Shown: positions 7,101 to 64,000 of the stretch, piece after piece
Layout: each line of letters opens with the position of its first letter
Position numbering within the stretch: position 1 is the first letter of the stretch
Assembly (NCBI GenBank): GCA_964016885.1
Contig: OZ024741.1
Location: 278,256,001-278,320,000, forward strand
Direction: 5' to 3'
Length of the DNA stretch: 64,000 nucleotides
Source: Eledone cirrhosa
Lineage: Eukaryota
Made by a program: the position numbers and the translations under genes
Notes under the pieces: generated by a model
Seen by the model: only the letters and a program-made list of their open reading frames with translations
Told to the model about the DNA's origin: nothing
Databases searched by the model: none

Positions 7101-7812
7101 ACACTATAGTTGGATATATTGGTATTTTATTTGATATATATACAATATACACTATAGTTGGATATATTGGTATTTCATTTGATATATATACAATATACAC
7201 TATAGTTGGATATATTGGTATTTTATTTGATATATATACAATATACACTATAGTTGGTTATATTGGTATTTTATTTGATATATATACAATATACACTATA
7301 GTTGGATATATTGGTATTTTATTTGATATATATACAATATACACTATAGTTGGATATATTGGTATTTCATTTGATATATATATATATATACACTATAGTT
7401 GGATATATTGGTATTTTATTTGATATATATACAATATACACTATAGTTGGATATATTGGTATTTCATTTGATATATATACAATATACACTATAGTTGGAT
7501 ATATTGGTATTTGATATATATACAATATACACTATAGTTGGTTATATTGGTATTTTATTTGATAGAAATACAATATACACTATAGTTGGATATATTGGTA
7601 TTTTATTTGATATATATACAATATACACTATAGTTGGATATATTGGTATTTCATTTGATATATATACAATATACACTATAGTTGGATATATTGGTATTTT
7701 ATTTGATATATATACAATATACACTATAGTTGGATATATTGGTATTTTATTTGATATATATATATATACACTATAGTTGGGTATGTTGGTATTTTATTTG
7801 ATATATATATAT

Positions 7813-18170: not shown

Positions 18171-21152
18171 CTGTAACACTAACTTCAAAAAACGAGACAA
18201 TCACTTGATCACCTATAGATCGGGGGAACACACAAGCCAGGTAGATTATATCCTTACCAGAAGACGTGACAGAGTGTCTGTTGTTAACACTAAATCCCAC
18301 CCCCATGAAGAATTCACCTCCCAACATAGATTGATAATTAGCGACCTCATAGTCAGGACGAGACGTACTAGACAGCGAAAGAGGACTATCCTCAGGAGAA
18401 AAATATGGAAGCTAAAGGACCCCATAGCCAGAAATAAATTTCAAAGCAAATTACTTGACGCTTTCGACAGTAAGGAAGAGCAATTAGAGTCGTATAATAT
18501 AGAGGAACAGTGGGAATTCCTGAGAGCAAACCTGCTGACGGCGGCAGACGAAGTCTGTGGCTGGAGCAGGCCTGTAGGTAGGAGGAGAGTAACATGGTGG
18601 TGGAACAGTAAGGTGGAGGAGTCAATTAAGGCCAAAAAGCAGGCTTGGAAAGTATGGCGGGATGGGGGAAGTAGAGAAGACTATCAAGTGGCCAGGAGGG
18701 AAGCTAGGAGACAAGTGTACTTCGCAAGAAGGGAAGCAGAGGAAAGAAAGTTCAAGCATGTTCTACAACGTGAGGACCAAAAACGTGAGGTGTTCAGGAT
18801 TGCCAGGCAATGTGTCAAGGAAAACCGTGATATTGTCGGGGAGAAGTGTGTACTTAACGATGATGGCATACTTGCCATCACCGACGCTGATAAGAAGGTA
18901 GCTTGGAAGTGTCACTACGAAAGGCTTCTAAATGAGGAGAACAAATGGGAGAAAGACAGTCTCCCCCAGATCGATCCAATAGAGGGACCAGCAGTGTTAG
19001 TTGAAGGTAGTATAATAAGTAAGGCAATCAAAGATATGAAGACGGGTAAGGCGGCTGGGCCTTCGGAAATAGTTGCTGAGATGCTGAAGGCATCTGGTTC
19101 GGTGGGACACACCATGGTCACCCGGATAGTTAACCAAGTCGTACAGAATGGGGTTGTTCCGAAGGAATGGCGTAGCAGCATCATCGTTAACTGCTATAAG
19201 GGAAAAGGAGATGCCCTAGATAGGAGTAACTATAGAGGCATTAAATTAATCGACCAGGTCATGAAGGTCACGGAAAAAGTAATAGCGCAACTAATCAGAG
19301 AGAGAATTGATCTAGATGAAATGCAGTTCGGGTTTGTGTCAGGCAAAAGTACCACAGACGCTCTTTTCATTGTACGACAACTACAGGAGAAGTACCTAGC
19401 TAAAAGTAAACCCCTATACTTAGCTTTTGTCGACTTGGAGAAAGCCTTCGACAGAGTCCCCCGTTCCATTATCTGGTGGTCTCTTAGAAAACTAGGTGTT
19501 GACGAATGGCTTGTGAGAGCTATACAAGCCATGTATAAAGAAACAGTCAGTAAGGTTAGAATTAACAACGAATATAGTGAAGAGTTTAGCGTAAAAGTTG
19601 GTGTCCATCAGGGCTCTGTACTTAGCCCCCTACTATTTATTATTGCCCTTCAGGCTATAACAGAGGAGTTCAAGACCGGCTGCCCATGGGAACTCCTATA
19701 CGCAGATGATCTAACGCTCATAGCTGAATCAATGACCGAACTAGAGAAGAAATTCCAAACGTGGAAGCACGGCCTAGAATCAAAAGGCCTTAAAATTAAC
19801 CTGGCTAAGACTAAAGTTCTAGTTTGTAGGAAAGAAAATAAGGCGGCGGTCCCATCGGGGAAATGGCCATGCTCAGTGTGTAGGAAAGGCGTAGGTAGAA
19901 ACTCCATTTTATGTCCCAAATGCAAAGTATGGGTGCATAAAAGATGTAGTGGGATCACAGGTAAGCTAACTAAGAACATAGATTTTACATGTGGCCGGTG
20001 CTCTGGTGCAATAAGTAGCAGCAAGTGCCCACAAAATACTAGCTCCTTCAACTGCGCAGAGGGTTCTATAGAAATAGTGGACAGCTTCCGTTATCTGGGT
20101 GACAAAATCAGCAGTGGGGGAGGGTGCTCTGAAAGTACAGTAGCTAGAGTCAGAACTGGATGGAAAAAGTTCAGAGAGCTTATACCACTATTAGCCGCTA
20201 GAGGGTTCTCCCTAAAAATGAAAGGCAGGTTATACGATGCCTGCATACGAACAGCAATGCTGCATGGCAGTGAGACCTGGGCATTGTGTGCAGAGGATAT
20301 ACGCAGACTAGAGAGGAACGAAGCTTGCATGCTCCGCTGGATGTGCAATAGTAATATACGTGAACGGCAAAGCATAAACGAACTAAGGAAAAAATTAGAA
20401 ATAAGAGGGATCAGATGTTGTTTACTCGAGAGAAGGCTACGTTGGTACGGTCACGTGATGCGCATGAAAGACGACAGCTGTATAACAAAGTGCAGGGCAA
20501 TAAAGATAGACGGTAGCCACGGAGTAGGCAGACCCAGAAAAACATGGGACGAGCTGATAAATTCCGACCTCACACGCTTACACCTCTCCAAGACAATGTC
20601 ACTGGACCGAGACCTTTGGCGGTACTCAGTAATAGAGAAGACCCGCCTTACCTAAATACAAAGTAAAAACCTACTACAGTCAGTAGGCACCTCTATCAAA
20701 ACACACCCCCGTCCCACCACCTCCACCCCACCCACACCGCCCCTTTCAATGTAAAGTTATGTTGGTCCCACAACATCCAGGCCGAAACAAATGAGATCGT
20801 GTAGGTGTCACGACAAAAAACACACAGTCCACGCTGTAAATGTGGCCGTGTAGGCAACACGGTAAAAACCTCCCAGCCCCACACTGCAAATGTGGTTGGT
20901 GTTAGGAAGGGCATCCAGCTGTAGAAAACCCGCCAGACAGTCCACGCTGTAATGTGGTCGTGTAGGCAACACGGTAAAAACCTCCCAGCCCCACACTGTA
21001 AATGTGGTTGGTGTTAGGAAGGGCATCCAACTGTAGAAAACCCGCCAGACAGTCCTATGCGAGCAAGACAACCACTCTTGCCTCAAGTGGGAAAACCCCC
21101 GTCCAAACCCATGCAAGCGTGGAACACGGACGCTAAACCTGATGATGATGAT
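18171..21152 (+). mobile_element. RTE LINE copy B' (duplicate of 11344-14325)
   Basis: Identical 848-aa ORF at offset 6827; same junctions; one visible T>C at 20887. Confidence 0.95.
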
Positions 21153-22360
21153 ATATACAATATACACTATAGTTGGGTATATTGGTATTTGATATATATA
21201 CAATATACACTATAGTTGGGTATATTGGTATTTTATTTGATATATATACAATATACACTATAGTTGGATATATTGGTATTTTATTTGATATATATACAAT
21301 ATACACTATAGTTGGGTATATTGGTATTTTATTTGATATATATATATATACACTATAGTTGGATATATTGGTATTTTATTTGATATATATACAATATACA
21401 CTATAGTTGGATATATTGGTATTTTATTTGATATATATACAATATACACTATAGTTGGATATAGTGGTATTTTATTTGATATATATATATATATACACTA
21501 TAGTTGGATATATTGGTATTTTATTTGATATATATACAATATACACTATAGTTGGATATATTGGTATTTTATTTGATATATATACAATATACACTATAGT
21601 TGGATATAGTGGTATTTTATTTGATATATATATATATATACACTATAGTTGGATATATTGGTATTTTATTTGATATATATACAATATACACTATAGTTGG
21701 GTATATTGGTATTTTATTTGATATATATACAATATACACTATAGTTGGGTATATTGGTATTTCATTTGATATATATACAATATACACTATAGTTGGATAT
21801 ATTGGTATTTTATTTGATATATATACAATATACACTATAGTTGGTTATATTGGTATTTTATTTGATATTTATACAATATACACTATAGTTGGATATAGTG
21901 GTATTTTATTTGATATATATATATATATACACTATAGTTGGATATATTGGTATTTTATTTGATATATATACAATATACACTATAGTTGGATATAGTGGTA
22001 TTTTATTTGATATATATATATATATACACTATAGTTGGATATATTGGTATTTTATTTGATATATATACAATATACACTATAGTTGGATATATTGGTATTT
22101 TATTTGATATTTATTCAATATACACTATAGTTGGATATAGTGGTATTTTATTTGATATATATACAATATACACTATAGTGGGGTATATTGGTATTTTATT
22201 TGATATATATATATATACACTATAGTTGGGTATATTGGTATTTTATTTGATATATATACAATGTACACTATAGTTGGATATATTGGTATTTTATTTGATA
22301 TATATATATACACTATAGTTGGGTATATTGGTATTTTATTTGATATATATATATATATAC

Positions 22361-45290: not shown

Positions 45291-45446
45291 GTTGACAGTG
45301 ATGAGATTTTTGAATGGCAGAAACAGCTCCGGTATTATTGGGATACCAACACTGATATGTGTGTTATTCATATGTCCAAATCAGATTATACCTATGGTTA
45401 TGAGTACCTTGGAGCTTCTCCAAGGCTTGTTATAACACCCCTAACG
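45291..45446 (+). CDS. DNAH6: Dynein heavy chain exon (VDSDEIFEWQKQLRYYW...YGYEYLGASPRLVITPLT)
   Basis: ctag/gtaagc; 156 nt; hallmark FEWQxQLRYYW and YGYEYLG..RLVITPLT at the start of AAA1. Confidence 0.95.
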
Positions 45447-46059
45447 GTAAGCAAGTTTTTTAGTTCTTTATTTTATTACATAGCCCAATCATTTGAAGAA
45501 AAGAAAATTATAATTTAATCTTAGTTTCTGAAATAGAATTTCTTCCTATACATGATTACATATACTATGTTAAATTATTAATGATATTAGCCCCAATATT
45601 AGATATTGTTCAGGCATGTCATTTTGAACAAGAGTTCTTATATAAAAACTCTTGTGTTTAAGATAGCATACCTGATGAGGTATTGGAGTCTAAACCTGCT
45701 AATGGTGAAACATTGGAGTTCCTTCTTGTACATATTGGTATATAAAGGTTTTTGATTTAGGCACAAGGCCAACAATTTGGAAGGAGGGGAAAGTCGATTT
45801 AATTGACCACAGTGTGTTATTGTTACTGTTATCAACCCTGAAAGGATGAAAGGCAAAGCTAACCTCAGCAGAATTTGAACATACAATTTAAAGAGCCACA
45901 ACTCTATGCCACAAAACATTGTCTGACGCTCTACCAACACTACCAATCTGTTGCCCTAATATTGTTATATTGTTATATAATAAAACATTGTTTTCTCACA
46001 CAGTTGAGTTCTTTGCTCATCTTTGGATTTGGATATTCTAACCCCCCACCCCCACCACC

Positions 46060-46612
46060 ATATAAAAAAGTGCAGGGCGATCAAAATTGATGGAAGTTAC
46101 GGAGTAGGTAGACCCAGAAAAACCTGGGATGATTTGATAAATTCCGACCTTACACTTGCACCTCTGTCACTGGACCGAGATCTTTGGCGTTACGCAGTAA
46201 TACAGAAAACCTACAGTCAGTAGGCACCTCCTAACCAAATATACACCCCAATCCACTACCCCTACCCTATCCTCCCACTCCCACCAACACCACCCTCTTT
46301 CTGTAAATTGGTACCACAACATCTAGTTGAAATAAATGAGATAATGAGATCGAGATCGTGTAGGTGTCATGACAAAAAACCACACAGTCCACGCTGTAAT
46401 GTGGCTGTGTAGGTAACACAGTAAAAAGTTCCCAGTTCCACACTGTAAATGACGTTGGTGTTAGGAAGGGCATCCAGCCGTAGAAAACTTGCCAGATAGT
46501 CCTATATGAGCGAGACACGGTCACCCAACCAACCTTGCCTCAAGTGGGACAACTCCCGTCTAATCCATGCTAGCTTGGAAGATGGATGTTAAACGAAGAT
46601 GCTGATGATGAT
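46060..46612 (+). mobile_element. 3' fragment of the same RTE family as the satellite-inserted copies
   Basis: KKCRAIKIDGSYGVGRPRKTWDDLINSDL plus the same 3' UTR and gatgatgatg tail. Confidence 0.85.
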
Positions 46613-46819
46613 GAGATGTTGAAAGAAGTGACTAAAGGGGTTGGTATCAGGAAGGGTGTTCAACTGTAAAACATTGCTTTAAAAAGTCCCATCTAACCCA
46701 TACCAGCATGGAAAATTTGACATAAAAATGATGATGATGGAATTAATTAATCCATATACTGTATGTTGTATTATGTTATTGTCATTGTAAGTATTTGTGA
46801 CATATATGCCTTTCATATC

Positions 46820-47365
46820 TATTCATATCTAGGTGATCAGATTAGCAAGGGAGGAGGATGCTCCGAGGCCATAGTATCTAGAATAAGGACAGGATGGAAG
46901 AAGTTTAGGCAGCTTCTTCCTCTGTTGAAAACGAAGGGTTTCTCTCTACGAATGAAAGGTTGGTTGTATGATGCCTGTGTGAGATGGTAGTGAGACTTGG
47001 GCAGCAACTGCAGCGGTTATGCGAAGGCTAGAGAGAAATGAAGCAAGCATGCTCCGATGGATGTGCAATATCAATGTGCTTGAACAACCAAGCATGGACG
47101 AGTTGAGAGTGGCCATGTGATGCGCATGGAAGATGACTGCTGGGTGAAGAAGTGCCAAAAAATCCCAGTGGAAGCAAGACGCAGTAGAAGAAGACCACGA
47201 AAAACGTGGGCGGAGGTGGTGAGGGCCGACCTCAGATCGCTGGAGCTCACAGAGGGGATAACGAAGGACCATGACAAATGGAGAAATACAGTGTTGAAGA
47301 AGACCCATCCCACCCTTGCAAGCAAGGAAAAGTGGACATCAAATGATAATGACGATGATGATGAT
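46820..47365 (+). mobile_element. Decayed 3' part of a related RTE subfamily
   Basis: YLGDQISKGGGCSEAIVSRIRTGWKKFR; RPRKTW; (gat)n tail. Confidence 0.8.
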
Positions 47366-48845
47366 GTCAATTCATGTAGCTTGAAAAAGTCCATCACCCC
47401 CATACTCATATTTAGAGTGGATTAGTGGTTAGGAAATGTAGATGATGTCTTCGTTCTAGTATAGACATTTAGTTCATAATTGACTTTGTTTTAATGAGTG
47501 TATTAGTCACAAGGTTGGAATTTGATGGTCTTATCCACTAGATGTTTTGTTTATTGTTGGCTTTCTTTTCTGACTGTATTATTTCTCAAAAGGGCATTTG
47601 ATGATTGCTTGCATTTGTTCTAAATGATTCTGCATTCAGATTTATGTATTTGAAGGTCCTATTTTCTTATTTACATAGAATATGCAAGGCTGGTGCTACC
47701 TTTAAGGCCAACTAGGCAGCTGCCTAGGGTGCAGACCTCAAAGAGGTGCATTACTGAATCTTAAAGGCAAAGGCCGAGGTTAACTTACAGGTCGATAAAA
47801 TAAAGTACCAGTAATACACTGGGTAGTTTCTGGCCTTGTGCCAAAAGTAGAAACAATTATTTATCAATCAAGAAGGCGGTTATTAACCAGTTTAGGCAGT
47901 GAATTGGCAGAGTTGCTAGAATACCAGATAAAATGTTTTGCAGCATTAATTCCAGCTTTCTGATTTCAAGTCACACCAAGGTCAACTTTGCCTTCCATCT
48001 TTTCAAAGTTGATAAAAAAAAGTACCAGTAAAATACTGAATTAAATCTTCCTCTAAATCTCTTTCTCATTTCCTCTCTATCGCAATAATAAAGACATGAA
48101 ACATAGCTAATAATTTTACAATCAAGGTGGACCACCTGATATTAGAATGTTTCAAAAGTTATTTCCCTTACATTGCAGCTATTTACTAGCATCATCCACA
48201 TATTTTATTTTCTCTGACTGCTGGAATAATATTTTTGATTAAATTGAGGGCGGTGGATTGGCAGTATCGGTAGAGAGACGGACGCCATGCTTTGCAGCAA
48301 AGAGTTACGGCCCTTTATGATCTGAGTTCAAATCCCGCCGAGGTTAACTTTGCCTTTAATCCTCACGGGGTCGATAAAATAAAGTACCAGTCACGCACTG
48401 GGGTCGATTTAATTGACTTTCCCCTCCCCCAAAATCACTGGCCTTGTGCCTATATAAGAAACCAATATTTTTGATTAAATTATAGTAATGCTGAACTCTT
48501 TCCTCAAACAATTTTTAGTGATTTTGTTGAAGCTGTGAGTTAAGGTTTATTGGTTTTTGTATGCTTAAGGTTGTGGGATATTCTGCTCTGGGGTCTTGCA
48601 AGAGTAGTTCTATATTCCAACTTTCCTTTTAAGTGTATTTTGAGAATATATATAGAGCTTTGTATCAATACATAGAATATTTTTTGCATTGTTTATTGCT
48701 TTAACCCTTTCGTTGCCACATTTCTAATAAAAGATGATGCCTAAAATTTTCAAATAATTTTGAAAATAATCAAAAATTTGGAAGGATATAGTAATATAAC
48801 TAACTTTGGTATATATATGTATATAAATGTATATATATATATATA

Positions 48846-49142
48846 TAATATATAAGAACAGAAGATGGTTAAAGGAGTTCCATGTATTTTATTATGCGCA
48901 TTTCAAAAACAAACATCATCATGCAATAATATTTGTGTTTTCATCAGATAAAACATCTGATGAAAACACAAATATTATTGCATGATGATGTTTGTTTTTG
49001 AAATGCGCATAATAAAATACATGGAACTCCTTTAACCATCTTCTGTTCTTATATATTATGTATACTCCAGTCCTACAAACTGTAGAGTGCTTCTTATCCG
49101 ATATCTGCATTGCTTTATTGTACTACAATAAAACTCACCTCC

Positions 49143-49146
<4 letters not shown>
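48846..49146. mobile_element. Fold-back Penelope-type pLTR fragment: 104-bp perfect inverted repeat, flanked by (TA)n
   Basis: Arms 48846-48949 and 48955-49058, spacer aaaac; each arm carries a hammerhead core. Confidence 0.7.
48886..48954 (-). ncRNA. Type I hammerhead ribozyme motif
   Basis: GUUUUAU-CUGAUGA-[stem II incl. ACAAAUAUUAU/AUGAUGUUUGU]-GAAA-UGCGCAU-A^-AUAAAAU; stem I pairs; palindromic stem III. Confidence 0.75.
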
Positions 49147-49184
<38 letters not shown>

Positions 49185-49441
49185 TATATATATGTATATA
49201 TATATGTAAGTATATATATGTATATATATATGTATATATATATGTATATATACATGTATGTATATTTGTATATTTATATATATATATGTATATATGTATG
49301 TATATATGTATATGCATCTATAGATATATACATATGTCTATATATCTATGTGTATATATATGTATATATATATATATATATGTGTATGTATATATGTTTA
49401 TATATGTATATATGTATATATATATGTATATATATATATAT
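49147..49441. repeat. (TA)n/(TATG)n microsatellite
   Basis: Direct sequence; produces the spurious N-terminus of ORF 49218-50369. Confidence 0.9.
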
Positions 49442-50597
49442 AGGAAAAAGTATGACCTCGACGGCAGAGCTCAAGCCGTTTCGATGGTGGAGTACTGAGG
49501 CTACAAACCTGGTTAAAAACATCTCCCTCCGCATATCTCGTTCGTCCGCTAATGAGCAGATATTCGATGAACATGTGCCTCATTACAATCAGGCCCTCAA
49601 GCGGAGTGGCTTCCGGGAGGAAATATCCTTTTACCCAGCTTCCCTTAGTGGAACCAGCAGGCAACACCACCGCTCACGTAACATAACGTGGTTCAATCCT
49701 CCCCACAATGCCGAGGTGGCAACACCTATCGGGAAAATCTTCTTTAGGCTCCTCAAAAAACACTTCCCACTACAACACCGCTACCACAACATAATCAACA
49801 AAAACACCATCAAACTCTCCTACAGCACCACACCTAACTTCGCACAAAACATCGTCTCCTCAAACAACAAAAAACTCAACCCCTATGGAAGAAACAACCT
49901 AGACATCAGTGGAGAGCCGACCAGGAGGTGTAACTGCCCTGATAGATCAACGTGCCCCCTCAACAACAGTTGCCGAGAACGTAACGTGATCTACCAGTGC
50001 AACGTGAAGACGGACACCTCCAACAAAGCTTATATAGGATTAACCGCTTGTGACTTTAAGACCCGGCTCTACCAACACCGACATACTTTCCGAAACCCGG
50101 TCCGGCGACATGCCACTACACTTTCGGGCCACATCTGGGACCTCCAAGATAATAATATAACCTACAATCTCACTTGGAGCTTACTGTCCAGAGCTAACTC
50201 TTACACGGGAGGACGCCGTCTGTGTAACTTATGCTTGGAGGAAACATTACAAATGCTGTTTTCGAAGGACCAACTCCTAAACAAGAAAGACGAACTGGTA
50301 ACCGCATGCAAACACAGATTGCGTAGGACTTACCTCGCCCTCAAACCCCATAACGACCCGGGTGGGTAGACAAGGGCTGATACCCCCACTTGCCGAATAA
50401 GTTAGGGGAAACCCCAGCTTACATAGGTAGATGTACCTCTTTTCTTTTCCTCTATGTTGTCTTCTTCCACCTGTCTCCTTCCCCCTGTCTCATCCTATCA
50501 CTTCCTTCCACCCCTGATCTTCTTCCTCGTCTGTTTTTCCCCTTCCGCCTACCCCGATGCAGCCCATCAGGCCTCTGTAGCCTCAGTACCCACACCC
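49442..50597 (+). mobile_element. 5'-truncated Penelope-like element (end of RT + GIY-YIG endonuclease, open to 50369)
   Basis: NITWFNPP; IKLSYS; [15 protein letters not shown]; [19 protein letters not shown]; CNLCLEE; 14-bp inverted match gtactgaggctaca (49492-49505) / 50576-50589. Confidence 0.88.
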
Positions 50598-51611
50598 CTG
50601 TAATTTTAAGATAGAATTGGCTGAATACACTTTATTAACTATTTATAGCAGATGTGTTAGACTCCTGTAATTTTGTATCATTTTTGTTACTACTCCAATT
50701 CTACAATTTCAATATTTCTTATTTAGTATTTTCTATTCTCAACTTATTAACCTGTAATTGTAAGATAGCATTGGCGGAATACGTTTTACTAACTATTTTT
50801 AGCAGCTGTGTTAGACCCCTGAAAAGTTTGCATTATATTTTTTGCCATGCTTTCCAGCATAGTTACGTCCCTTTACGATCTGAGTTCAAATCCCGCCGAG
50901 GTTGACTTTGCCTTTCATCCTTACGGGGTCGATAAAATAAAGTACCAGTAATGTACTGGGTAATTGCTGGCCTTGTGCCTAAAGTAGAAATAATTATATT
51001 TTTTCACTACCCACTTCTACAATTTCTAATTTAGTATTTTCGATTCTCAACTTATTAACCTTTTCTATAGCTTTGGCCATACAAGCAACACCTACTAATT
51101 ATAGCAGCTGTCTCTAGACTCTACTGTTTTTTTGTTTTTTTTTATTCATTTCTCACGATCTAATTTTATATATTTTCTTTATATTTCTTTCTATTATTTT
51201 TCATTGTCTCCTACTCTCATTTGACTTACCTACTCTATTACTTCCCTCCTTCATTTTCTTCAGAACAATTTTTTGACTTTTCATACACTATCCTGAGAAT
51301 CTGCTGTATAGATTTCACTTTCAATGCTTGACCGGCTCCACTCACTCCCTCATTGTTCTACAGGCAAGTTCAGCCACCCCTACCTCCCACCAAAATGCCA
51401 TGACAGACTTATTTGTGTTTACAACAAATTTTAACCAATCCTCTTCACAACTACAATCTTCCGATATAAGGAAGTACCCCTTGACAAGTTCGGCTATTTA
51501 TTTACCAGGCTAAAAATTCTAATTTAGTCCAGAAATAGCGTCGAAACGGCTTGAGCTCTGCCGTCGAGGTAATACTTTTTCCTATTACCCACTCTACTAC
51601 CCTAAGTATTG

Positions 51612-52048
51612 TAAGGCCTGTGTGAAGTGCGCGATGCTGCATGGTAGTGAGACATGGGCAGCAACTACAGAGGATATGTGACAGTTGGAGAGAAATGAAG
51701 CAAGCATGCTCTGTTGGATGTGCAATATCAATGTGCATGAACAATCAAGCATAGATGAATTGAGTAAGAAACTGTATAAGAGGGATAAGTTGTGGTGTGT
51801 GGGAGAGAAGACTGCGATGGTATGGACATGTGATGCGCATGGAGGATGACCACTGGACAAAGAAGTACCAAGAAATCCCAGTAGAAGGAAGACCACGAAA
51901 AACATGAATGGAGGTGGTGAGAGCAGACTTCAGATCGCTGAAGCTCACAGAGATGACGAAGGACCATGACAAGTAGAGAGATGCTGTGCTGAATAGGCCC
52001 TGTCCCACCCTTGCAAGCAGGGAAAAGCGGACGTAAAATGATGATGAT
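51612..52048 (+). mobile_element. Decayed RTE 3' end followed by (TA)n
   Basis: gcgatgctgcatggtagtgagacatgg (AMLHGSETW); tail aaaatgatgatgat|tatatatata. Confidence 0.8.
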
Positions 52049-52414
52049 TATATATATATATATATATATGTATGTGTATATATATTTGTATGTGTATATA
52101 GATATGTATATGTATATATATATATATATGTGTGTCTGTGTGTATATATATTTGTATGTGTATATATATATGTATATATGTACATATATATATATATATT
52201 TGTATCATCGTCACCATCATCATCTTCGTTTAACGTCCATCTTCCACACTAGCATGAGTTAGTATGTGTATGTGTATATATATATATGTATATATATATA
52301 TATGTTTGTATATATATATGTATATATGTTTGTATGTATATATATATGTATATATATATATATATTTATGTATATATATATGTATGTATATATATATGTA
52401 TGTATATATGTATG

Positions 52415-53390
52415 TAGAGAGGTAGAACACTGGAAGGTAATATCCATAGTGGTACATCACTTAGTCCATGGGACGAGTTTGGTAGAATTAGAAACACAAC
52501 AGTTAGTTCACCATACTGAGAACAATTGTTTCACCTTAAGCGGATCTTCAGCTCGGACTGGTAATGGCTATACAGAACAGGAAGAACAACTGTATGAACA
52601 CGCATGTGGAGAAACGGTCACTTCACCCAAACGATACAAAACCACGGGCGAAAGGTGTAAGGGAGATAACTGCGAATGTCCGGAAAAAATATTCGAGTTG
52701 ATTAGACAATTAGAATCTTGTTATTCAATCTGGAGCTTTGTAGTTATGCAAGAGGTGTTTTTAGACTTGTGGACAACGTGAGAAGATTTCATTTCTTGGA
52801 TTTAGGCAATCGTTATTGCGTAATCTCCTTAGAATATCTATCCTTTCTTCAATACAGTCCACAAGACGGATTGCCCCTAGCGTATGGTTTCCATTGAATG
52901 GAGTAGTGTATACCTGAGTCTTTGAGGGACCATACATGGCTCGCGAACTTCATGGATGATCGTTTGTCCGGGTACCTAAAGGTCGACTGATGGTGCATGA
53001 AACGTTCCTTAAATCAGCCCTCCGCCATACCTACATAGGATTTGACCTCCTGTGGTTGTTTTGGTCAGTTGGAAGTGACCACAGCTTCATAAACTACAGC
53101 AGGTGTGTTGCATTGCTGTTGAAGGGGACAAGCTTCAGGCTTTCGGCAAGAGCATCCTGGTGGGGTGCCGCTCTTAGGACTGTTGGTGATGTGGGCCTTC
53201 ATATTCTTAGCGCAGGAGTACCCTAGTTTTCCTTTGTGTCTGTTAAAGATGGAGCGGTATTTGTGACCTATAGGAAAGTGTCTATCTAAGAGAGCTAAAC
53301 ATTTTTTTTCTACATTAGTTTTAACATTGAGTGAGAAGGGAGGAGAGAACCAGATAGTTTGTCTATTGTTACGATTTCTTTTCTTATTGC
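52415..53390 (-). mobile_element. Second Penelope-like GIY-YIG element, pseudogenised
   Basis: Minus-strand RQTIWFSPPFSLNVKTNV..RHFP..SIFNR..LGYSC; CSCRKPEACPLQQQC; VVYEA..SYVGMAE..FKERF, with stops; adjacent (TA)n. Confidence 0.8.
52516..52556 (-). ncRNA. Minimal type I hammerhead ribozyme motif in the PLE 3' region
   Basis: ccGAG-CUGAAGA-uCCgcuuaaGGu-GAAA-CAAUUG-U-U^-CUCag; palindromic stem III; weak stems I and II. Confidence 0.65.
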
Positions 53391-53392
53391 TG

Positions 53393-54910
53393 TTGATTTC
53401 TACAGCTGGATACCCTTCCTAACACCAACCTCATTTACAGTGAGTGCTGGTTGCTTTTTTTTAGTGGCGCCTACATGACCACTTTGCAGTGGGAGGGGAT
53501 GGGGGCATATTGTCTATATGCTTCAGCTTCGGCTTGTTCCCGTGGGAAGTCGGGTCTTCTGTATTACTGCGTGACGCCAGAGGTCATGGTCCTGTGTCAT
53601 CGCCTTTGAGAGGTGCAATTAGGCATGGTCTGCTTTTATCACCTCATCCCTGGTCTTCCTGTGTCTCCCCACTCCACGGCTTCCATCAACTTTTTGTACT
53701 TTGTACCTTTTTATGCAGCTGTCATCCTTCAAAGGCAAAACGTATCCATACCAACGTATCCTCCTTTCCTTGATTCCTCTTATGTTCAGTCTCTTTTTCA
53801 ATTCGTTCATACTTTACCATTCGCATCGGATCATGCAAGCTTCATTTCTTTCTAATCTACTGTCCCGGTGCAGCTGCTACATGTAAAGCCTACATTCCTA
53901 ACTAAACTTCCTGAGATCCCACTACATCTCTTGTGTACCCATAGTTAGCATTTGGGGCAGAGAATGGAATTCCTACCTACACTTTTCCTACATACTGAGC
54001 AAGGCCATTTCTCTGAGGGGATCTGGGTTCTGTTTTCTCGTCTACTTACGAGGACCTTAGTCTTTGTCAGGTTGACTTTGAGACTCCTTCTTTCTAGTCT
54101 ATTCTTCCATGTTTGGAATTTCTTCTTTAGTTTCGCCATAGATTCAGCTATAAGTGTAAGATCATCCGGATGCAGAAGTTCCCATGGGCATCCTGTCTTA
54201 AACTCCTCTGTTATAGCCTGCAATATGATAATAAACAGGAGAGGGCTAAGAATAGAGCCCTGGTGGACACCGACCTGTATGCTAAATAGTCATTGTTAAC
54301 CCTAACTTTGCTGACTGCTCCCCTTTCACAAGCCATTCATCTACTCCTAGTTTTCTAAGAGCCCACCAGATTATAGCACGGCGCACTCTGTCAATGGCTT
54401 TTTCTAGATCGACAAATGCCAGGTAGAGCTGCTTACTTTTAGCTAGGTACTTTTCCTGTAACTGCCACACAAGGAAAAGAGCATCAGTGGTGCTTTTTCC
54501 CAGCACAAACCCAAACTGCATCTCATCTAGTTTTACCCGGCCCCTCATCAACTGTGCTATAACTCTTTCTGTTACTTTCATGACCTTGTCCATCAGCTTT
54601 ATACCTGTATAGTTTCCTCTATCTAGTGCATCTCCTTTACCCTTGTAGCAGTTGAGAATGATGCTGCTGCATCAATCCTTTGGTATGACACCCTCTTGTA
54701 TTACCTGGTTAACAATACGTGTGGTGATGGTGTGACTTACCGACCCAGATGCTTTCAGCACCTTGGCAGCTATACCTGATGTCTTCATATCTTTAATTGC
54801 CTTACTTACTACGCTGATACTGACTTGTATTGCTGGTCCCTGTATAGGGTCCACTTGGGGTAGAGTCTCTTTCTCCCATGCATTCTCCTCATTTAATAAT
54901 CTTTCATAAT
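53393..54910 (-). mobile_element. Decayed antisense RTE LINE (RT + partial PHD, internal deletion)
   Basis: ORF pieces 54672-54968, 54282-54593, 53945-54223 and 53619-53810 homologous to copy B; 5' end abuts (TA)n. Confidence 0.88.
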
Positions 54911-54989
54911 ATATATATATATACACACAGGATGAAACCAATATTAAACTAGTTAGACCATTATTCATTGTTAACAGGTTTCAGGTCTC

Positions 54990-55270
54990 TGGCGCCAGTT
55001 TATTCTGGGATATCCTTTTTCGCCTCTTTCCATGGGGGAACCAATACAGGGCCTGATTACCATGTACCGACCAGTCAAATCGATGCTTGCACATAATGTT
55101 AGACACATGTTATTGCTGAGTTCGTTGACAGACTTCTTTGTTAGTGATGAAGTTATTCCACCCGATACCAAGGATTTTGTTTAGGCATTTGGTGTTACAA
55201 TCATCTGATTAGTTCTCATGGCTGGTCATTGCACTCAATGTTTTGGTCCCATACAGGAGCATTGAAAGCA
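54990..55270 (-). mobile_element. Old LINE RT C-terminal remnant of another family
   Basis: Minus-strand LSMLLYGTKT...KCLNKILGIGWNNFITNKEVCQRT. Confidence 0.55.
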
Positions 55271-56123
55271 AATCATGAGGTTAAGAGAAACATAATCACA
55301 AGTTGAATAATGCAAAGATTGGGAACTATAAGATGTTTGTGTGATGATAAACTGTATGAATGATTGGGCAGAATAAAATGAATGAGTTGTGATTGCATGT
55401 GTTTAGAGCTATGTAGAAATGGAGAGAGAAAGATAGGCTAATGTTGGGAATGAAAAGATGTAAGAGATACATGACAGGTTATTATACTCACTGACCTACA
55501 GCCATGAGTAGCTGAGAACCTCTGCTGTTATCAAAATCTGTGACAAAAAAGGTTGAGCGAGAGCTGGTGGAACAGTCAAAGTCACATTGTTGAAATTACC
55601 GTTTATACTCATATATAAGCTGAGACATATGTGACAAAAAAAATTGATGGTAAAATGGAGGAGGGATGGGCAGCTTATATTTGAGATCAATAATTTGATG
55701 ATTTTCACCAACTTCAAATTCTACGTAAATAAGGTGCTAAAATACCCGGAGTGACTCTTTTACAATAAAAAACTGTTTTTCTACATTTACTGCAGTGTCA
55801 TGAGTGTTATTTATGGATTCTCTTGAGAACATTACCAACAATGTTTTATATTTGAACTTTTAAATACATAAATATATCCTACACATACACGTAAACACAT
55901 GAACTCACACACATACAGGCATACATACATGTGCTGATTGTTTTTTCTGTGACCTAATTATATTTTTTCTTTCAATTTTACTTCTGTTTTGTATTTTATT
56001 GCTCTCACTCTCTTTCTCCCTTTTCTCACTCTTGCCCTCTCTTTTTCTTGTTCTGCCTCTCCTCTCTCTTGTTTTTTGTCTCTCCCTCCCCCTTCTATTC
56101 TGAATTCTTATACAACATTCTCT

Positions 56124-56568
56124 TAATAGAGGTGTATATGAAAACATTTATAATACATTTATACACAATAAACATATGGGTAGCCTCGCTACTGAAGAAA
56201 AATATTTTTTCTTAATGAAACAAAATAAAACGCAAATGACCAATTCATGCGATGTTTCCTATATGCAAATGAGCATCATCAGCAAGTGATCATCATGCAA
56301 AATTCTATATTGGCTTCAGACTATTCCATGCTAGTAAGTTTTGAGTGAGCATTACTGATGAAAGATTAACAAATCTTGTAACAATGTTGTCTGACACTCT
56401 CAGAACATACTGGCAACTTGCTAATATATTCACTGAGGAAAATAGAGAAAAATAAAATTTTTTTTATTTAATATCATTTTGTTTTGTTACAAAAAATATT
56501 TTCTTCGGCAGCGAGGCTACACATATGTATATAATGTATTATATATGTTTATATATACACCTCTATTA
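56124..56568. mobile_element. Unclassified MITE-like element with ~85-bp imperfect TIRs
   Basis: taatagaggtgtata..gtagcctcgct..gaagaaaaatatt versus aatattttcttc..agcgaggctac..tatacacctctatta. Confidence 0.65.
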
Positions 56569-58754
56569 TGTTTAAATGCTGTCTTAGTACGACTGCCAAT
56601 TAAATGTTCTCTTAGTCAATCTCTTTCTTTCAACCATCCCCTATTCATTATCCCCATGTATAGGTGTTCAATTTCCCCATCTAAATGTTGATTAGCTGCC
56701 TCAGTTTATACATAAGGTTTGGATTTTTGTTCATTTCTCAAATATAAAATGGGGTGGGGGTGCTTATATTCGGATCAGCTTATATTTGAGTATATACAAT
56801 AATTCTAAATTCAAATGATTTTTTTCCAGTAATTAACTATTACAAATATAAACTGTATTTCACAATTCTGAGAATGATTTTACTCATTTTCTATTGTTGG
56901 TGTTGTTGTTATTTAGCCCTAGAGTATCCCTTATCATCTTAGGTGTTCCAGCCATGACCATCCTACTTAGTTTTTAAAGGAAATACATTATGCAATGTGT
57001 CCTTTTGTAATACAGTTGAATATAAATTGAGTAAAATGTAGCTGCTATAATGTAACAGAGGAACGACATGGAGGTGGTTCCCTCTATGGTTTCTACTCTA
57101 TCATTAATGAGGTGAATTGGCAGAGTTGTTAGACTGCCAGTTAGACTGCTTTGTGGGATTCTTCCTGCTTTCTTTGCTCTCTATGTTCAAATCTCGTTGA
57201 GGTCAACTTTGCCTTTCATCCTTTTGAGGTCGATAAAAATGTACCAGTCAAGTACTGAGGTAGATTCTTTCTCTATATCTCTTTCTCACTTCCATTCTCT
57301 CATACTCTATCCTTCTCTGGAAGAAATCTGCTGTGTTCAGATCTGGAGAGGAGATAGGCTCTGCTAGGTTTAAAAATGCCCAAGAAATGCTGTATACCAT
57401 TACAGTTCTCCTATGGCTCCATCAGGAGTTACAGGACCATACATGTATATCATTAATCTATAAATTTTCTAATAATGAGAGTTTTTAAAAAATATCTCCA
57501 TTTGTAAGTGTCTAAAAGTAGCTGCATATATTCTATTAAAATTAGTGTGAAATAAAAAAAAAAATGATGCTGAGATTTATTGAAAGGAAAAAACAAAAGG
57601 ACAACGAATGTTAAATGCATGAAAATGCATAAAATACCCACAAAAAAAAACCAAACAAACCAAAAAATAAAAGCAAAAAAAAAAATAAATAAAAGAAAAA
57701 GCTAAAGGATCATTTTAAAGTTTACTCGGAATAATATTGACCAATTTTTAGTTTAAGTAGTAAATGCACAAAATAAATTGATAAATGAATTGCTGACTGC
57801 TTTCCAGTCTGAATGCTTGTCTGCCAAGTGTAGTAAATGATGGATTGATGAAACCAAATAAACAAACAAATAGACAGACAGACAAACAGACAGACAGACA
57901 AACAGACAGACAAACAGACAAACAAGCAGATTAATGAATGAACTAGAGAAAAGAAGGTTTCTATAGTGAAACAACTGTCTGAATTGTGGCTATATTAAAC
58001 CGAATCAATGAATAATCTCTATTTATGAATCGTCCAACAGTTTTTGCTCTAATGTTTCACTTGAGAGCCGTATCAATTCTACAAAATGGTTGATGCACTT
58101 TCTTTCTCAGTAAAATCAATTATCAAATAACTGACACCAACACAACTATTTCTCTTGCTTCTTTTGTATTTTATTTTATTGTATGTTTTTATTTATTTAT
58201 TTATTTATCTTTTTATTTATTCATTTATTATTTACTTATTTATTTATTTATTTTGGGCTCTTTGTATCCCATGCATATTTGAATGAAAATGTTAATTTAT
58301 TATTCAGAAATAATTTTAGAGCCTATAATAAAGGAAGAGAGAAAAAGCAAGAAAAAAAAAAGCAAAAAGAAAAGCACTCAGTGAAATCTTCTATTTCAGA
58401 TTTAGGGTATTTACAGAATTCTTTAATGAAAGAATACATGTCTCGAAAACATGTTCTTTACCACCCTTATCTCTCTCTCCACCCCACCACTAGCATCTCC
58501 ATACCCACCACTAACATCTACACACCCACCACTGCCATCATTACACCTCCACCTGTATATCTTTATTATATCTCTGAGGTACATATAGATATGAATGACT
58601 GTATGAAATATGTATGTATCTCGTTATAAAGAATTCGGTCGATCTTGTTACAACAAATTTTATATATATATATACATATTTCATACATACATACATATTT
58701 CATATAACAACATTTTGTTATAATGGTATTTGTTATAACGGAATTTTACCTGAA

Positions 58755-59340
58755 GCCGCTAGAATTGGTTGAGGACTTCCTGTATCTGGGAGCAAAGATT
58801 AGGATACAGAAGATGATGTGGTCGAGAGGAAGAGAAAAGGCTGGCCGGTGTGCCACAGTTTGAGATCGGTGTGGAAGTCGAACCTTCGTAAAGACCTGAA
58901 AATCCATCTCTTTGTTGTTGTAGTGGAGTCTGTGTTACTGTATGGGTCTGAGACTTGGACACTGACCAAGAAACTCAATAAGATGGTGGATGGGTGCTAC
59001 ACGAGAATACTGAAGATGGCTCTGAACATTAATCAGTATACACTGAGGATGAACAACTCAGAGCTGTATGGGAGCCTCCCAAAAATCAGCTCAAAAGTAG
59101 CACAGAGGAGACTGAGGTTAGCTGGACATGCTCACTGACATCCAGAGTTGACACTACACTCAGTGCTCTTGTGGGAGTCCCTGCATGGACACACTAGAAG
59201 AGGAATACCGAGGTTGACATATGTTGATGCCCTAAGGATAGACACTGGTCTCTTGGAGACGCAGGACATGGCAGCGATGATGAGGGACAGAGACCGCTGG
59301 AGAGAACTTGTCCATGGATCTCAGGAATTTTACCCGCCCT
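58755..59340 (+). mobile_element. Decayed 3' end of a different RTE-like LINE, followed by (TA)n
   Basis: VESVLLYGSETWTLTK..DGCYTRIL..RRLRLAGH; RGIPRLTYVD. Confidence 0.8.
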
Positions 59341-59371
59341 AGATATATATATGTGTATATATATATATATG

Positions 59372-59410
<39 letters not shown>

Positions 59411-59412
<2 letters not shown>

Positions 59413-59567
59413 CGAAGGAGTTGTGGTAAGGAACCAGATGGACCATAACGCACCAGAGTACTCAATAGGGTAGTAGAGTTAGTAATAGGAGAAAGTATGA
59501 CCCCAACGGCAGAGCTCAAGCCATTTCGAAATGGCTTGAGCTCTGCCGTCGGGGTCATACTTTCTCA
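59411..59567. mobile_element. Fold-back PLE pLTR fragment between (TA)n tracts
   Basis: ~39-bp arms centred on tttcgaaa; same sequence at 49442-49484 and 51541-51610. Confidence 0.65.
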
Positions 59568-59849
59568 TATATATATATATATACATGTAAACGCATATTG
59601 TGGGAATGCATTGCTGGCATCATTATCATTATTGTCATGATGTCACCATCATCATCATCATCAGGTCACAGAGAGTGTGATTGGCCAGGTCACAGACAGG
59701 GATATGAAAGTTTTGACACCAAAAATTTGAAAAAAAATAATAAACAACCGTCGGCCTTCAGGACGCATGGTAGATTTTTGAGACTTATTTTAGGAATTAA
59801 GTAGCATCTTCAACACTGGGAAATATGGTAAGTTTTTGTGTGATTCTAA

Positions 59850-60175
59850 ATTATTGAAATGACTCTTCCATAATGTCATTGTTTTAGATTGAGCACACAG
59901 TCTTAGACCAAGTCACTTGCTAGGCATGTGCAACTGTGGCTAAAATGACTCTTCCATGCAATAATTGTTTTAGTTTGAACACACTCTCAGATCTAGTCAT
60001 TTGCTAGACAAATACAATTGTGGTTTAAATGACTGTTTTATGCTGTAATTATTATTTTTTTCAAGTAAATACCAGACAAGTACAACTGTGGCTAAAATGA
60101 CTTTTCCATGATGTAATTATATTAGCTTCAACACTGGGTCTCAGTTCTAGTCACTTGTCAGACATGTACAACTCA
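59850..60175. repeat. Degenerate ~80-bp tandem repeat (about 4 units)
   Basis: aaatgactcttccat..ttgttttag..agtcacttgctag.ca.gt.caactgtggct repeated. Confidence 0.6.
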
Positions 60176-61756
60176 GAAATACCAGCAAAATAACTGTAGA
60201 ATTCACTCTATTTACCTATCAACACCTCTGAGTGTTTTACAGGATGTGTGTGGTATAAATGTGTGGAAGCATGCGTGGTCTCTGTTTCTATGCATGTGTA
60301 GGTGTGTTTGTATGTGTGTTATATCTCTTTCTCTCAGCTCCACTTTGTCTTCCTTGCTTTTCCCCCATCCTCCTCTTCACCCACTGAGTACACCCACCCC
60401 TCTCTTACTACACTAATTATGGAATCTTAACTCTGTTGTTTAGCTCCACCTACAACTGTCAATCACACCCCATACTCCCACTGTATACACCCACATAGTA
60501 CACCCACTTCTCTTGTTTTTTTTCTAGACTAAGAGTGGAATCCTAAACCTGTCATTTAACTACACCTACAACTGTTAATCATCCTACCATATCTACCATC
60601 TCTCAATAACATACTCTTTTAAAATTTTACTTGAATTCTTAACTCTTTAACATTTAAATTACTTTATATTTACTATTGTATTTTCATAGTAAATACTTTA
60701 TTCACATAATTATCTCATAATATTGAATCTATGAAATTTTGATATTATTTATTTTGTGAACAATACCTTAACGTCATTATAAGTGTCTAGTTATGGCTGG
60801 TTTGAACAGAAAGAGGTAAGAGAATTCTGGCCGGATATGGCCAGTTAAAATGCTAAAGGGTTAATGAAGGAAACAGAATTAATCCTATAAGAGTCACTTT
60901 TTAATAAATCAACATATACTATATATATATATATGATTAAAGTTTTCGCTCCGAGATATCTGTATACATTTAAGTATGTGATTTTTGTATATCTAATGAT
61001 ATGTGGTATGTTTTCAAATAAACATTTTGAGAGCAAACAGAAAAAACAGCAAATGACACAGTACAATGAGGAAATACATTATTAGTTTTACACTTGATAT
61101 AGTAGGAAAAAATTCTTAATGTTTAGAATTAGAAAATAAAATGAGAAATTAAAGAAAAATAGAAGGATTGAGGTGATGTGCAGTGGCAGAAATGGAAAAA
61201 AATTTTTTAGTGAAAAATAACAGGTCGATTCATGTTGTCATCTCTTGGAAAATTGTTGATGCTGGCGTTTTGTGTAAGATAATCATGTTTTAAAAAGTGG
61301 TGATCGAGCGCGTCTATCTGAAAAAAAAAAAGCGTTTTGTATATAGAGCCATTTGTGTGAGTGTACATGTGTATGTGTGTTTGTATATGTCCATATGAAG
61401 CTAAGAGGATATGTGTAGGATATGTATATGTAAGTATAAGAGTGTGTGAGTGTCTTTGTAAGTATGAAGCTGTAAGCAAACGTGTGTGTATATAAGGGTG
61501 TGTGTGTGTTTTTGCCTGTATATATATATATTGTATGATAGAGTAAACATAAAAAGCTATCCACATTACAGACATATTTTCTCTAGTAGGTAGGTTGTTG
61601 TGTTGCCCCATGGTTCTCATTCATTCTGTTATTCTATACTTTATAAAATAACATTAAACTATACAACTCTGGTCATTATATTGTTTATAGGTATTCTTCA
61701 GTTTTGTTGATGCCATTGTTGTATTTTTGTTGTTATTATTATTGGTAGAGTGGTAT

Positions 61757-62820
61757 AAGGGCGGTGCATTGGTAGTATCGGTAGAGGGTCGGACGCCATG
61801 CTTTGACGCATAGAGTTACGTCCCTTGCCATTCTGAGTTCAAATCCCGCCGAGATTAACTTTGCCTTTCATCCTTACGGGGTCAATAAAATAAAGTACCA
61901 GTAATGCACTGGGATAATTGCTGGCCTTGTGCTAAAAGTAGAAACAATTATTACTGGTAGAGTGTCGGACAATATGCTTTGCAGCATGTAGTTACTTTCC
62001 TTTATAGTCTGAGTTCAAATCCTGCCGAGGTTAGCTTGGCCTTTCATCTTTTCCAGGTTGATAAAATAAAGTACCAGTAACGCACTGGAATCAATTTAAT
62101 GGACTTTTCCCTCCTCCAAAATTATTGGCATTGTGCCTAAATCAGAAACTATTATTATTTTTTTGATATTACGGCCATTTACATTCTGAATTCAAATCAT
62201 GCCAAGGTCAACTTTGCCTTCCATTCTTCCGAGGTTGATAAAATAAAGTACCAATCCCATACTGGGGTTGATACAATCGAATTTCCTCTTCTCCCAAATT
62301 GCTGGCCTTGTGCCAATGTTAAAAACAGTTATTATTGTTATTATTAGGGTAGTGGATTGGCAGAATTGTTAGAGCATTGGACAACATGAGTTACGGCCCT
62401 TTATATTCTGAGTTCAAATCCTGCCAAGGTCGACTTTGCCTTTCATCCTTTTGAGGTTGATAAAATGAAGTATCAGTCAAGTACTGGAGTTGATATAATC
62501 AACTTTCCTCTCCCCACAAATTACAGGTCTTGTGCATAAATTAGAAACCGTAATTATGATTAGTAGACTCATTAGAGTGTTAGACAAATTCTTAGAAGCA
62601 TTTGTTCCAGCTCTTCATATTTGAATCCTGCTGAAGTCAACTTTGCCTTTCATCCTTTAGGATTCAATAAAATAAACTATCAATCAAACACTGGGTTTGA
62701 TGTAATTGACTTTTACCCCACTGCCTAAATTGCTGGCCTTGTGCCTAAACTAGAAACCATTATTATTAATGTAAGGGTAGTGGATTGGCAGTATCAGTAG
62801 AGCATATAGTTACGTCCCTT
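61757..62820 (+). mobile_element. Head-to-tail cluster of about 6 tRNA-derived SINEs
   Basis: Repeated gagttcaaatcc B-box, gcctttcatcc..gataaaataaagtaccag core and ggccttgtgcc..gaaac.attatt tail; dispersed copies at e.g. 48247-48467, 50845-50995, 45745-45955(-). Confidence 0.8.
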
Positions 62821-63271
62821 TCTCATTATTCTGTTTGTTTTTTCATCAAATATTTTGTTGTTTTGCCTTAACTTGCTGAACATTTATTTTCAATCATATC
62901 TAGTTCTAGTGGTTCATTTATTTTCATCATTTCTGCACTGATTTGATTGGACTCTAGCGTTTATATTGCTTCACTCTGTAGCTACATAGCTGCTTTCAAA
63001 CAGCTATGGAACTTTTTTGATTTGGCTGTGTTTATCTCAATAATTTCCCTTTCTGGTTTTGAACAATTATTTAAATTTGTATTAACCCTTCTCATACCAA
63101 ATTGCTTAAAACCGACCTTGATTTATAATTAAATGAATCATGTTACCATATTCGATACAAATTGCATCGGTCTTTGTTGTAGGAGGGGACTATGGCCAAT
63201 ATAAGCCTTCCTTTTCACTAGTAAATTAAAATCAGTACGGCACTTGAGAACCTATAACATTTTCAAGCAGG

Positions 63272-63620
63272 GGTCCCATGTAAACATAGTATGGCTCCAT
63301 GCAAGCTTAGTATGGTCCCATAGCAACTTTATTATGGTCCCATGCAAGTTTAGTATGGTCCCATACAAGCTCAGTATGGTCCCATGCAAACTTAGAATGG
63401 TCCTATGCAAGCTTAGTATGGTCCCATGCAAGTTTAGTATGGTCCCATACAAGCTTAGTATGGTCCCATACAAGCTTAGTATGGTCCTATGCAAGCTTAG
63501 TACGGCTCCATTGAAGCTTAGTATGGTCCCATGCAACGTTAATATGGCTCCATGAAAACTTAGTATACAAGCTTAGTATGGTAATATACAAGCTTAGTAT
63601 GGACCTCTGTAAGCTTAGTC
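63272..63620. repeat. 21-bp minisatellite (tatggtcccatgcaagcttag)n, about 15 units
   Basis: Direct sequence. Confidence 0.9.
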
Positions 63621-64000
63621 CAGCTCCTGCTATACACCATATACACTTCCTGGCGCTTTTCTACTCTGTCTCTATCTTCCTTTGTCTTTTCTCTTATTTC
63701 TATCTCTCTTTCCAGCACACCTTTTAATTTTCCCACTTATTCTCTCACCCACTTAGGCACTCACATATCTATACACAGTTAGTTACACACAGAGTTAGAC
63801 ATACATACATAATTATACACACACTTGCAGTTATACATACACACAGATCTAACTGCATACACACATAATATATATGCACATGCAGTTATACACATATATA
63901 CATAAATGATTATATACACACACAGTTATATTGAAACAGTCTTATATACACAGCTATACACTAACACAGTTTTTTAATATATATATATATATTATGAAAG

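Follow-up and report, generated by a model that had tools for sequence, protein, structure and literature searches.

Penelope-like elements (PLEs) of the Hydra clade are marked by RWK, DKT, CxCx5C and CxxC/CxH motifs, by hammerheads and by insertion into (TA)n, nearly all families of the clade using such targets (PMC8557442). PLE insertions have been described as an inverted 5′-truncated copy beside a direct copy with a tail at one end only (PMC8557442, PMC3846280) and with palindromes at the head-to-head junctions (PMC3846280), and truncated PLEs have been given as the source of hammerhead pairs that lie 100–700 bp apart on opposite strands (PMC4209133); in Penelope-13_HM an inverted 5′ copy goes with a hammerhead on each strand (PMC8557442 supplement). 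The purified PLE protein of Anolis nicks AT-rich DNA on both strands and extends both, starting at two internal sites between which the tail lies, and insertion does not require hammerhead cleavage (PMC11167929); these in vitro data come from a Poseidon-clade element, not from the Hydra clade. In retrozymes, units that each contain a hammerhead are repeated head-to-tail (PMC7229834; bioRxiv 10.64898/2026.07.22.740005).

The locus analysed here, a palindrome with hammerhead motifs in a 64-kb stretch of Eledone cirrhosa DNA (the window), resembles the Hydra-clade PLEs of PMC8557442 (Penelope-13_HM, Hydra-1_Crog, Hydra-2_Ajap, Hydra-1_Obim) in its (TA)n setting, its 3′ type I hammerhead and its inverted 5′-truncated copy, but is without an ORF and has a longer stem II. 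The hammerheads listed there have C-G at 15.2–16.2, whereas the AUA triplet of the palindrome comes with U-A. None of the six Hydra consensi in that paper belongs to its sequence family, and the hammerhead of the Hydra family listed for Octopus bimaculoides differs from that of the palindrome. With Adineta Pen2a (PMC3846280) and Anolis PAc (PMC11167929) it shares the head-to-head inverted copy, the junction palindrome and the one-sided tail, although, unlike in Penelope/Poseidon insertions, the ORF apparently does not start in the hammerhead region. Non-LTR retrozymes are likewise AT-rich, without an ORF, equipped with a type I hammerhead and likely PLE-related, but consist of tandem 150–450-bp units (PMC7229834; bioRxiv 10.64898/2026.07.22.740005). 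None are present here, and hence a monomer circle could not be excised. Taken with the evidence below, the locus is likely a recent, heavily 5′-truncated Hydra-clade PLE insertion in (TA)n, made of two 3′-end copies placed head-to-head, one of them tailed.

The palindrome and its flanks

The inverted repeat spans 105 bp without a mismatch (48845–48949/48955–49059) around the 5-nt loop AAAAC (48950–48954), and an 87-bp tail (49060–49146, + strand) stands behind the right arm only, arms, loop and tail together making 302 bp. The initial annotation had described a perfect palindrome of 104 bp; the perfection holds, the arms being one base pair longer, and the palindrome takes up 215 of the 301 bases it delimited, the remainder being the tail, which it did not mention. 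The left arm (− strand), the perfect reverse complement of 48955–49059, reads as an inverted 5′-truncated copy of the 3′ end of an element without its tail, and the right arm (+ strand) as the direct 5′-truncated copy. The 5′ ends of the arms differ by 5–7 nt only, and the loop has AT on either side, a 2-nt microhomology; the fold-back layout proposed at the outset is borne out. Low-complexity sequence aside, this is one of only two long hairpins in the 64 kb.

The (TA)n seen earlier on both sides comprises a left tract at 48810–48844 (TRF, 48810–48854), the likely insertion target, and a right tract at 49147–49442 (TRF, 49146–49442), common to the next PLE insertion. Both flanks being TA repeats, no target-site duplication is discernible in (TA)n, a difference from Penelope/Poseidon insertions (PMC3846280, PMC11167929). 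The absence of mismatches between the arms (0 in 105 bp) sets a 95% upper bound of 2.8% on their divergence, in keeping with the recent origin already suggested, unless the arms were homogenised later. Equally, no meaningful ORF is present, as had been stated: the longest ATG-started frame is 63 aa on the minus strand, and a 160-aa stop-to-stop frame is mainly read-through of the TA repeat.

Dynein heavy-chain exons (Pfam DHC_N2, AAA_6) lie upstream on the + strand, the last at about 45291–45448 and followed by GTAAGC. Beyond this exon, which starts the AAA_6 region, the rest of the window (45449–64000) yielded no further dynein exon. The earlier statement that the plus-strand arm is sense to the dynein pre-mRNA thus agrees with the strand of the upstream exons, and the intronic position of the locus is presumed from them. 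The dynein intron that begins after about 45448 would exceed 18.5 kb.

Hammerhead motifs in both arms

On the minus strand, positions 48885–48955 hold a complete type I hammerhead motif, supported by a descriptor, by folding and by a model built from relatives only. It is composed of the core CUGAUGA (48947–48941), GAAA (48904–48901), the palindromic AUGCGCAU and the triplet AUA, with a stem II region of 36 nt and 15 pairs, a stem III of 2 bp plus palindromic tetraloop, and a predicted cut after 48893 (H17). Stem I has 8 bp, one of them G-U, not the 7 bp first reported, while the motif itself stands. The plus arm has, as annotated, the same core (48957–49011) and a truncated stem I of 2 bp, and CUGAUGA, GAAA and AUA (core CUGANGA, triplet NUH) are present on both arms. 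In being of type I, with a long stem II and a palindromic stem III and in an opposite-strand pair, the motifs are like the minimal PLE hammerheads of Cervera and de la Pena 2014 (PMC4209133), but differ from those in having A-U in place of G-C at the base of stem II and no bulged base. This G10.1–C11.1 pair is conserved, not universal; G-C stands directly at the base in 4/12 hammerheads of relatives, and a bulged base is found in 5.

No match of like quality to the minus-strand hammerhead occurred in 200 block-wise dinucleotide shuffles of the window. Additionally, on the minus strand the 5′ side of stem I consists mostly of loop bases, and the chance that 5 random bases would all pair there is 0.008 (0.015 for either strand), which argues that AAAAC is likely element sequence.

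Rfam gave no match anywhere in the window at gathering thresholds, and in 48700–49250 no hammerhead was among the 57 matches at E ≤ 10. The silence of the Rfam covariance models, which the initial annotation would have counted against its reading, is uninformative here, since Rfam also missed 12/12 hammerheads in eight related-ORF loci (none found at E ≤ 0.05). The top Rfam matches were miRNA models below cut-off that match any long hairpin, and a miRNA reading was rejected; a Pfam match to Ago_MID_bact over the left arm (E 0.005, below cut-off) was taken as noise.

The eight loci (L001–L008) were obtained by searching GTDB contigs with an alignment of 19 proteins, and the Hydra-type PLE ORFs on these bacterial contigs are likely animal DNA, that is, host contamination of the bins. 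Ten hammerheads were found by the descriptor (in 7/8 loci) and two more by eye and pattern, and 9 of these 12 lie 85–171 nt after the end of an ORF match. A model built from 10 of the 12 gave 11 matches in the window, among which the minus-arm hammerhead ranks third with a weak score (E 0.079), behind that of a third PLE family described below (E 0.01) and a candidate at 45664–45745 (E 0.06); the plus-arm hammerhead is not among the 11. Set against the relatives, the palindrome has a longer stem II region (36 nt versus 11–22 nt) and U-A at pair 15.2–16.2, where all 12 have C-G. The hammerhead-like candidate at 45664–45745 (+), 220 nt after the dynein exon, has a long irregular stem III, and neither an ORF nor a TA tract adjoins it.

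PLE families next to the palindrome

To the right, where the TA tract ends, lies a PLE of a second family (49441–51608, +), consisting of an inverted 3′-end copy, a truncated ORF, a direct 3′ end and the start of a tail. The inverted copy (49441–49484) matches the element's own 3′ end at 51541–51584 with 1 mismatch in 44 nt. The 5′-truncated ORF (49506–50369) encodes a CxCx5C linker and a GIY-YIG-type endonuclease and has 25 homologs of 561–759 aa with 34–56% identity, in which DKT is present in 21, RW[KR] in 19 (RWK in 9) and CxCx5C in 22. A third PLE family (52414–53361, −) follows, with ORF fragments (53361–52728), a hammerhead (52551–52521) and an end in (TA)n. Linker CxCx5C is found in the ORFs of both families, and CxxC-E and CxH in the longer one, all of them among the marks of the Hydra clade (PMC8557442). 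Neither the neighbour's ORF nor any of the 4 homologs tested was assigned to a family by Pfam, and a PDB search with a 19-sequence profile returned nothing; the PLE call on this ORF rests on motifs and on Atlas neighbours, whose GIY-YIG on 31–35% of members we treat as a lead. Two other clades were considered and dropped: Naiad, in which the endonuclease is N-terminal, and Neptune/Nematis, in which the linker is CX2-5CxxC as opposed to CxCx5C here.

The second family recurs at 59412–59567 (−) as a mini-palindrome, again within (TA)n and followed on one side only by a tail of roughly 74 bp; this is the window's other long complex hairpin (59485–59570). Its arms have 2 mismatches in 43 and 5′ ends that differ by 0, its centre is the self-complementary TCGA (59527/59528), and its tail has a hairpin of the kind described below for 49064–49091. 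When the two copies of the family are aligned, the untailed arms end at one shared point and the tailed arms run on alike, and both inverted copies begin at one TCGA just 5′ of the hammerhead GAAA. This shared start suggests preferred stop or joining sites. The second family thereby provides an internal control, as it repeats the layout of the palindrome twice within the window, once around a PLE ORF.

These neighbours also bear on whether the palindrome is a fold-back chimera created during sequencing or assembly. Perfectly identical arms are what such an artefact would leave, and the inverted structures of PLEs can cause assembly problems (PMC8557442), but the second palindrome has mismatches between its arms, the neighbour's inverted copy carries one as well and lies 2 kb from its source, and the loop of the palindrome itself completes stem I; we regard an artefact as very unlikely.

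The three families' 3′ ends have no significant plain similarity (58–79/500 shuffles scored as high), and their translations gave no match to any PLE N-terminus. The hammerhead of the second family (51468–51584, +), as read by eye, has an apparent U3-A8 core variant (TTGACAA near 51480), a long stem II, a stem III loop holding GAGCUC and a GUC triplet; PMC4209133 describes a U3-A8 core variant. The roughly 20 nt (49485–49505) that separate the inverted end of this neighbour from its ORF match 50576–50593 in reverse (18/19) and are likely template-switch filler at the junction.

A hairpin in the one-sided tail

The one-sidedness of the 87-bp tail recurs in the second family, and at 49064–49091 (+) the tail holds a hairpin, ACUC-CAGU-loop-ACUG-UA-GAGU-GCU, matched by a descriptor and by a model from 9 relatives; a further hairpin of 8 bp lies close to the tail end (49114–49132, +). 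The former begins 53 nt past the predicted cut, a distance shared with L001, and 5 nt beyond the point at which the untailed arm ends. Its pattern consists of RCUC, an upper stem that varies, a bulge of 2 nt, GAGY and RCU. The descriptor, which was composed after seeing these sequences, has 12 matches in 206,424 strand-bases versus 0.27 expected from shuffles. Nine of the 12 lie 29–111 nt (the 29 nearer 26) 3′ of a listed hammerhead, one lies behind a further ORF end, and two are without PLE context (L005 4319 and window 4212). Shuffling the tail itself yields a match in 16/100,000 cases.

In the 10 PLE-linked hairpins, upper-stem positions 2–4, which the descriptor does not fix, are paired in 20/27 cells with several pair types, a level reached by 0/20,000 permutations. 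Aligned to the model, the hairpins of 9 relatives are 87% paired versus 75% for shuffled sequences, in an alignment that leans towards structure. A model from 6 relatives recovered the 3 held-out relatives at the expected places and missed the 49064–49091 copy at E ≤ 5; with the model from 9 relatives this copy ranks third of 6 in the window at E 4.6, or E 0.022 within the element. Support for the conserved hairpin in this particular tail is hence moderate. After the 12 hammerheads of relatives, 5 continue into a strict hairpin, 5 run into a microsatellite 29–54 nt after the cut, and 2 (L002 6029 and L007) have neither; in the third family the hairpin is a partial match only.

By eye, the hairpin is also found in 4/6 of the Hydra consensi of PMC8557442. 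It lies 3′ of the hammerhead in Hydra-2_Amil and Hydra-2_Ajap, twice at the start of Hydra-1_Ajap (positions 3 and 64), and in Hydra-1_Crog both 3′ of the hammerhead, with one lower-stem mismatch, and again 6 nt after the start; the upper stem of Hydra-1_Crog, CAGU/ACUG, is the same as in the tail studied here. The other two consensi stop about 36–47 nt after the cut, before the expected place of the hairpin, and at the start of the Hydra-1_Obim consensus no clear copy was seen by eye. We found no description of the hairpin in the literature searched, a search not aimed at Hydra-clade stem-loops, and the supplementary figures of PMC11167929 may show a comparable one. From the occurrence of the hairpin in the tail, in relatives and in four Hydra consensi we conclude that the tail probably belongs to the element, which itself is probably of Hydra type; the 105-bp palindrome copy having no ORF, the hairpin is its link to the clade.

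The tail also speaks to a DNA-transposon origin, in which the palindrome would be a TA-targeting MITE or foldback element with a hammerhead by chance. An AT-rich palindrome within (TA)n would suit such an element, and MITEs that target TA microsatellites exist (PMC4486113); however, the shuffles above never reproduced the hammerhead, and only the left terminus is formed by the inverted repeat, the right one being the tail with its PLE hairpin. We hold this origin to be extremely improbable.

With respect to position, paired hairpins lie 62, 63 and 65 nt apart at three tandem junctions and 61 nt apart in Hydra-1_Ajap, and five ends that carry a tail have 59, 62, 63, 68 and 83 nt between hairpin and (TA)n. 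Of the published consensi, two start 2 and 6 nt 5′ of a hairpin (PMC8557442), and the untailed arms here end about 5 nt 5′ of one. On this pattern we put forward, with slightly more doubt than conviction, that Hydra-clade PLEs may carry a duplicated cis-acting hairpin between hammerhead and ORF start, each copy of which would dock the reverse transcriptase so that synthesis starts a few nt 5′; the two copies would then set the element ends and the tail length, and mini-palindromes like the present one would document how a single RNP dimer primed both strands of the target. The proposed docking could be likened to the telomerase template boundary. The hairpin offers a concrete, mutable candidate for an RNA signal that may set PLE start sites and tail.

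L005 has four different hammerhead-bearing 3′ ends at 1214–2635, each running into (TA)n within 1.4 kb, and in the first of them the loop of the hairpin may be interrupted by a TA tract. At L005 as in the window, TA tracts thus accumulate PLE ends. L002 contains a 204-bp imperfect palindrome (7373–7574, 91%), nested in larger inverted repeats near more PLE fragments.

Origin of the head-to-head copies

The palindrome combines features of truncated PLEs, an inverted 5′-truncated head-to-head copy and a tail at one end, with those of the Hydra clade, insertion in (TA)n and a hammerhead at the 3′ end. The RT and GIY-YIG ORF of an autonomous PLE is absent, as in a truncated remnant, and no ORF-bearing member of the palindrome's own family was found in the window, the eight loci, the GTDB contigs or phages. 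Of the PLE/retrozyme origin first proposed, the PLE part is supported by layout, neighbours and hairpin, while the retrozyme part falls, as there is one inverted pair and no head-to-tail tandem unit. Nor is the label non-autonomous needed, as an ordinary 5′-truncated insertion explains the locus, which is a new copy of a known insertion type and an ordinary remnant.

How the two copies came to lie head-to-head may be explained by dual priming, towards which, in the form that follows, we lean slightly. The protein of a full-length element elsewhere would nick both strands of the TA tract, and each nick would prime cDNA synthesis on element RNA. From the top-strand nick, synthesis would begin at a proximal start just 5′ of the conserved hairpin and yield the untailed left arm and the loop; from the bottom-strand nick it would begin at a distal start 87 nt further 3′ and yield the tail and the right arm. 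Both cDNAs would halt at the 5′ edge of the hammerhead and be joined via the 2-nt AT microhomology. The hammerhead would be cargo of the parent element, and its presence on both strands a by-product of the PLE insertion mode. Two findings count against this account: the tail is 87 bp long versus the 30–40 published for Penelope/Poseidon insertions (PMC8557442, PMC3846280), and near-equal arms fit a fold-back better than two independent stops. A mixed route, in which one of the cDNAs folded back, may have been taken.

In a purer version the same PLE origin would apply, but a single cDNA would have snapped back and then copied a few target bases, with the tail being older host sequence or a separate insertion that lies between two TA tracts. 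The 5′ ends of the arms, which differ by 5–7 nt here and not at all in the other mini-palindrome with its central, self-complementary TCGA, are as expected of self-priming, which has been proposed for head-to-head junctions (PMC3846280), and the junction of arm and tail resembles degenerate TA repeat. However, the tail has the hairpin of the clade at +53, as in L001, a tail is common to the two tailed copies of the second family, and the neighbour's inverted copy of 44 nt stands against a direct copy of 2.1 kb, which is beyond snap-back alone. We thus consider pure snap-back unlikely. Under dual priming, the locus would be a minimal record of PLE integration, a poorly resolved process, with start points, stop points and junction within 302 bp.

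Predicted behaviour of the RNA

In RNA of either strand the antisense arm precedes the hammerhead. For read-through RNA the predicted hammerhead-constrained fold lies above the hairpin by 91.9 (+) and 92.7 (−) kcal/mol, and in 8/8 transcript prefixes folded all 7 core bases are predicted to be paired in the antisense duplex. As read-through RNA would zip into a 105-bp duplex, the hammerheads are predicted to be silent at the locus, with neither ribozyme cutting. Taken alone, the minus-strand hammerhead has a hammerhead fold of −6.4 as against −10.6 for its minimum-energy fold. The palindromic stem III is predicted to give an 8-bp intermolecular duplex of −10.5 kcal/mol and would suit dimers, as is known for the short palindromic stem III of PLE hammerheads (PMC4209133, PMC6765202). 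Unlike the dimers of PMC4209133, though, these two copies are unable to form a ribozyme dimer within one transcript, and the dimer action suggested for the locus is not sustained: the hammerheads are on opposite strands, each preceded in its transcript by perfect antisense.

The same predictions weigh on the idea that the palindrome is an independent non-autonomous element of retrozyme-like or foldback type, mobile as a palindromic unit and making use of its hammerheads. It has no ORF and a complete minus-strand hammerhead motif, and PLE derivatives of that kind exist (PMC8557442; bioRxiv 10.64898/2026.07.22.740005). Yet it is without tandem units, both of its hammerheads are predicted to be sequestered, and its layout is the same as that of an ordinary truncated neighbour, which leaves this idea highly improbable in our view. 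For the truncated PLE insertion that we favour, the predicted folds make double-stranded RNA within an intron of the dynein pre-mRNA the likely product. Such insertions would seed perfect intronic dsRNA, a possible substrate of editing or small-RNA pathways. Nothing suggests any host use of the locus.

Other features of the window

Upstream, 48-bp AT-rich satellite arrays lie at 5023–27991 inside one dynein intron. They are interleaved with LINE-type copies, which we take to be RTE-like, and were rejected as part of the element. A 5.3-kb block within this region (10155–15439) recurs at 16985–22267 with 99.3% identity and is a recent tandem duplication or an assembly duplication. Finally, a 527-aa stop-free frame at 2561–4141 (+), in a GC-rich stretch and with weak RNase H and integrase matches, reads as an LTR-type retroelement.
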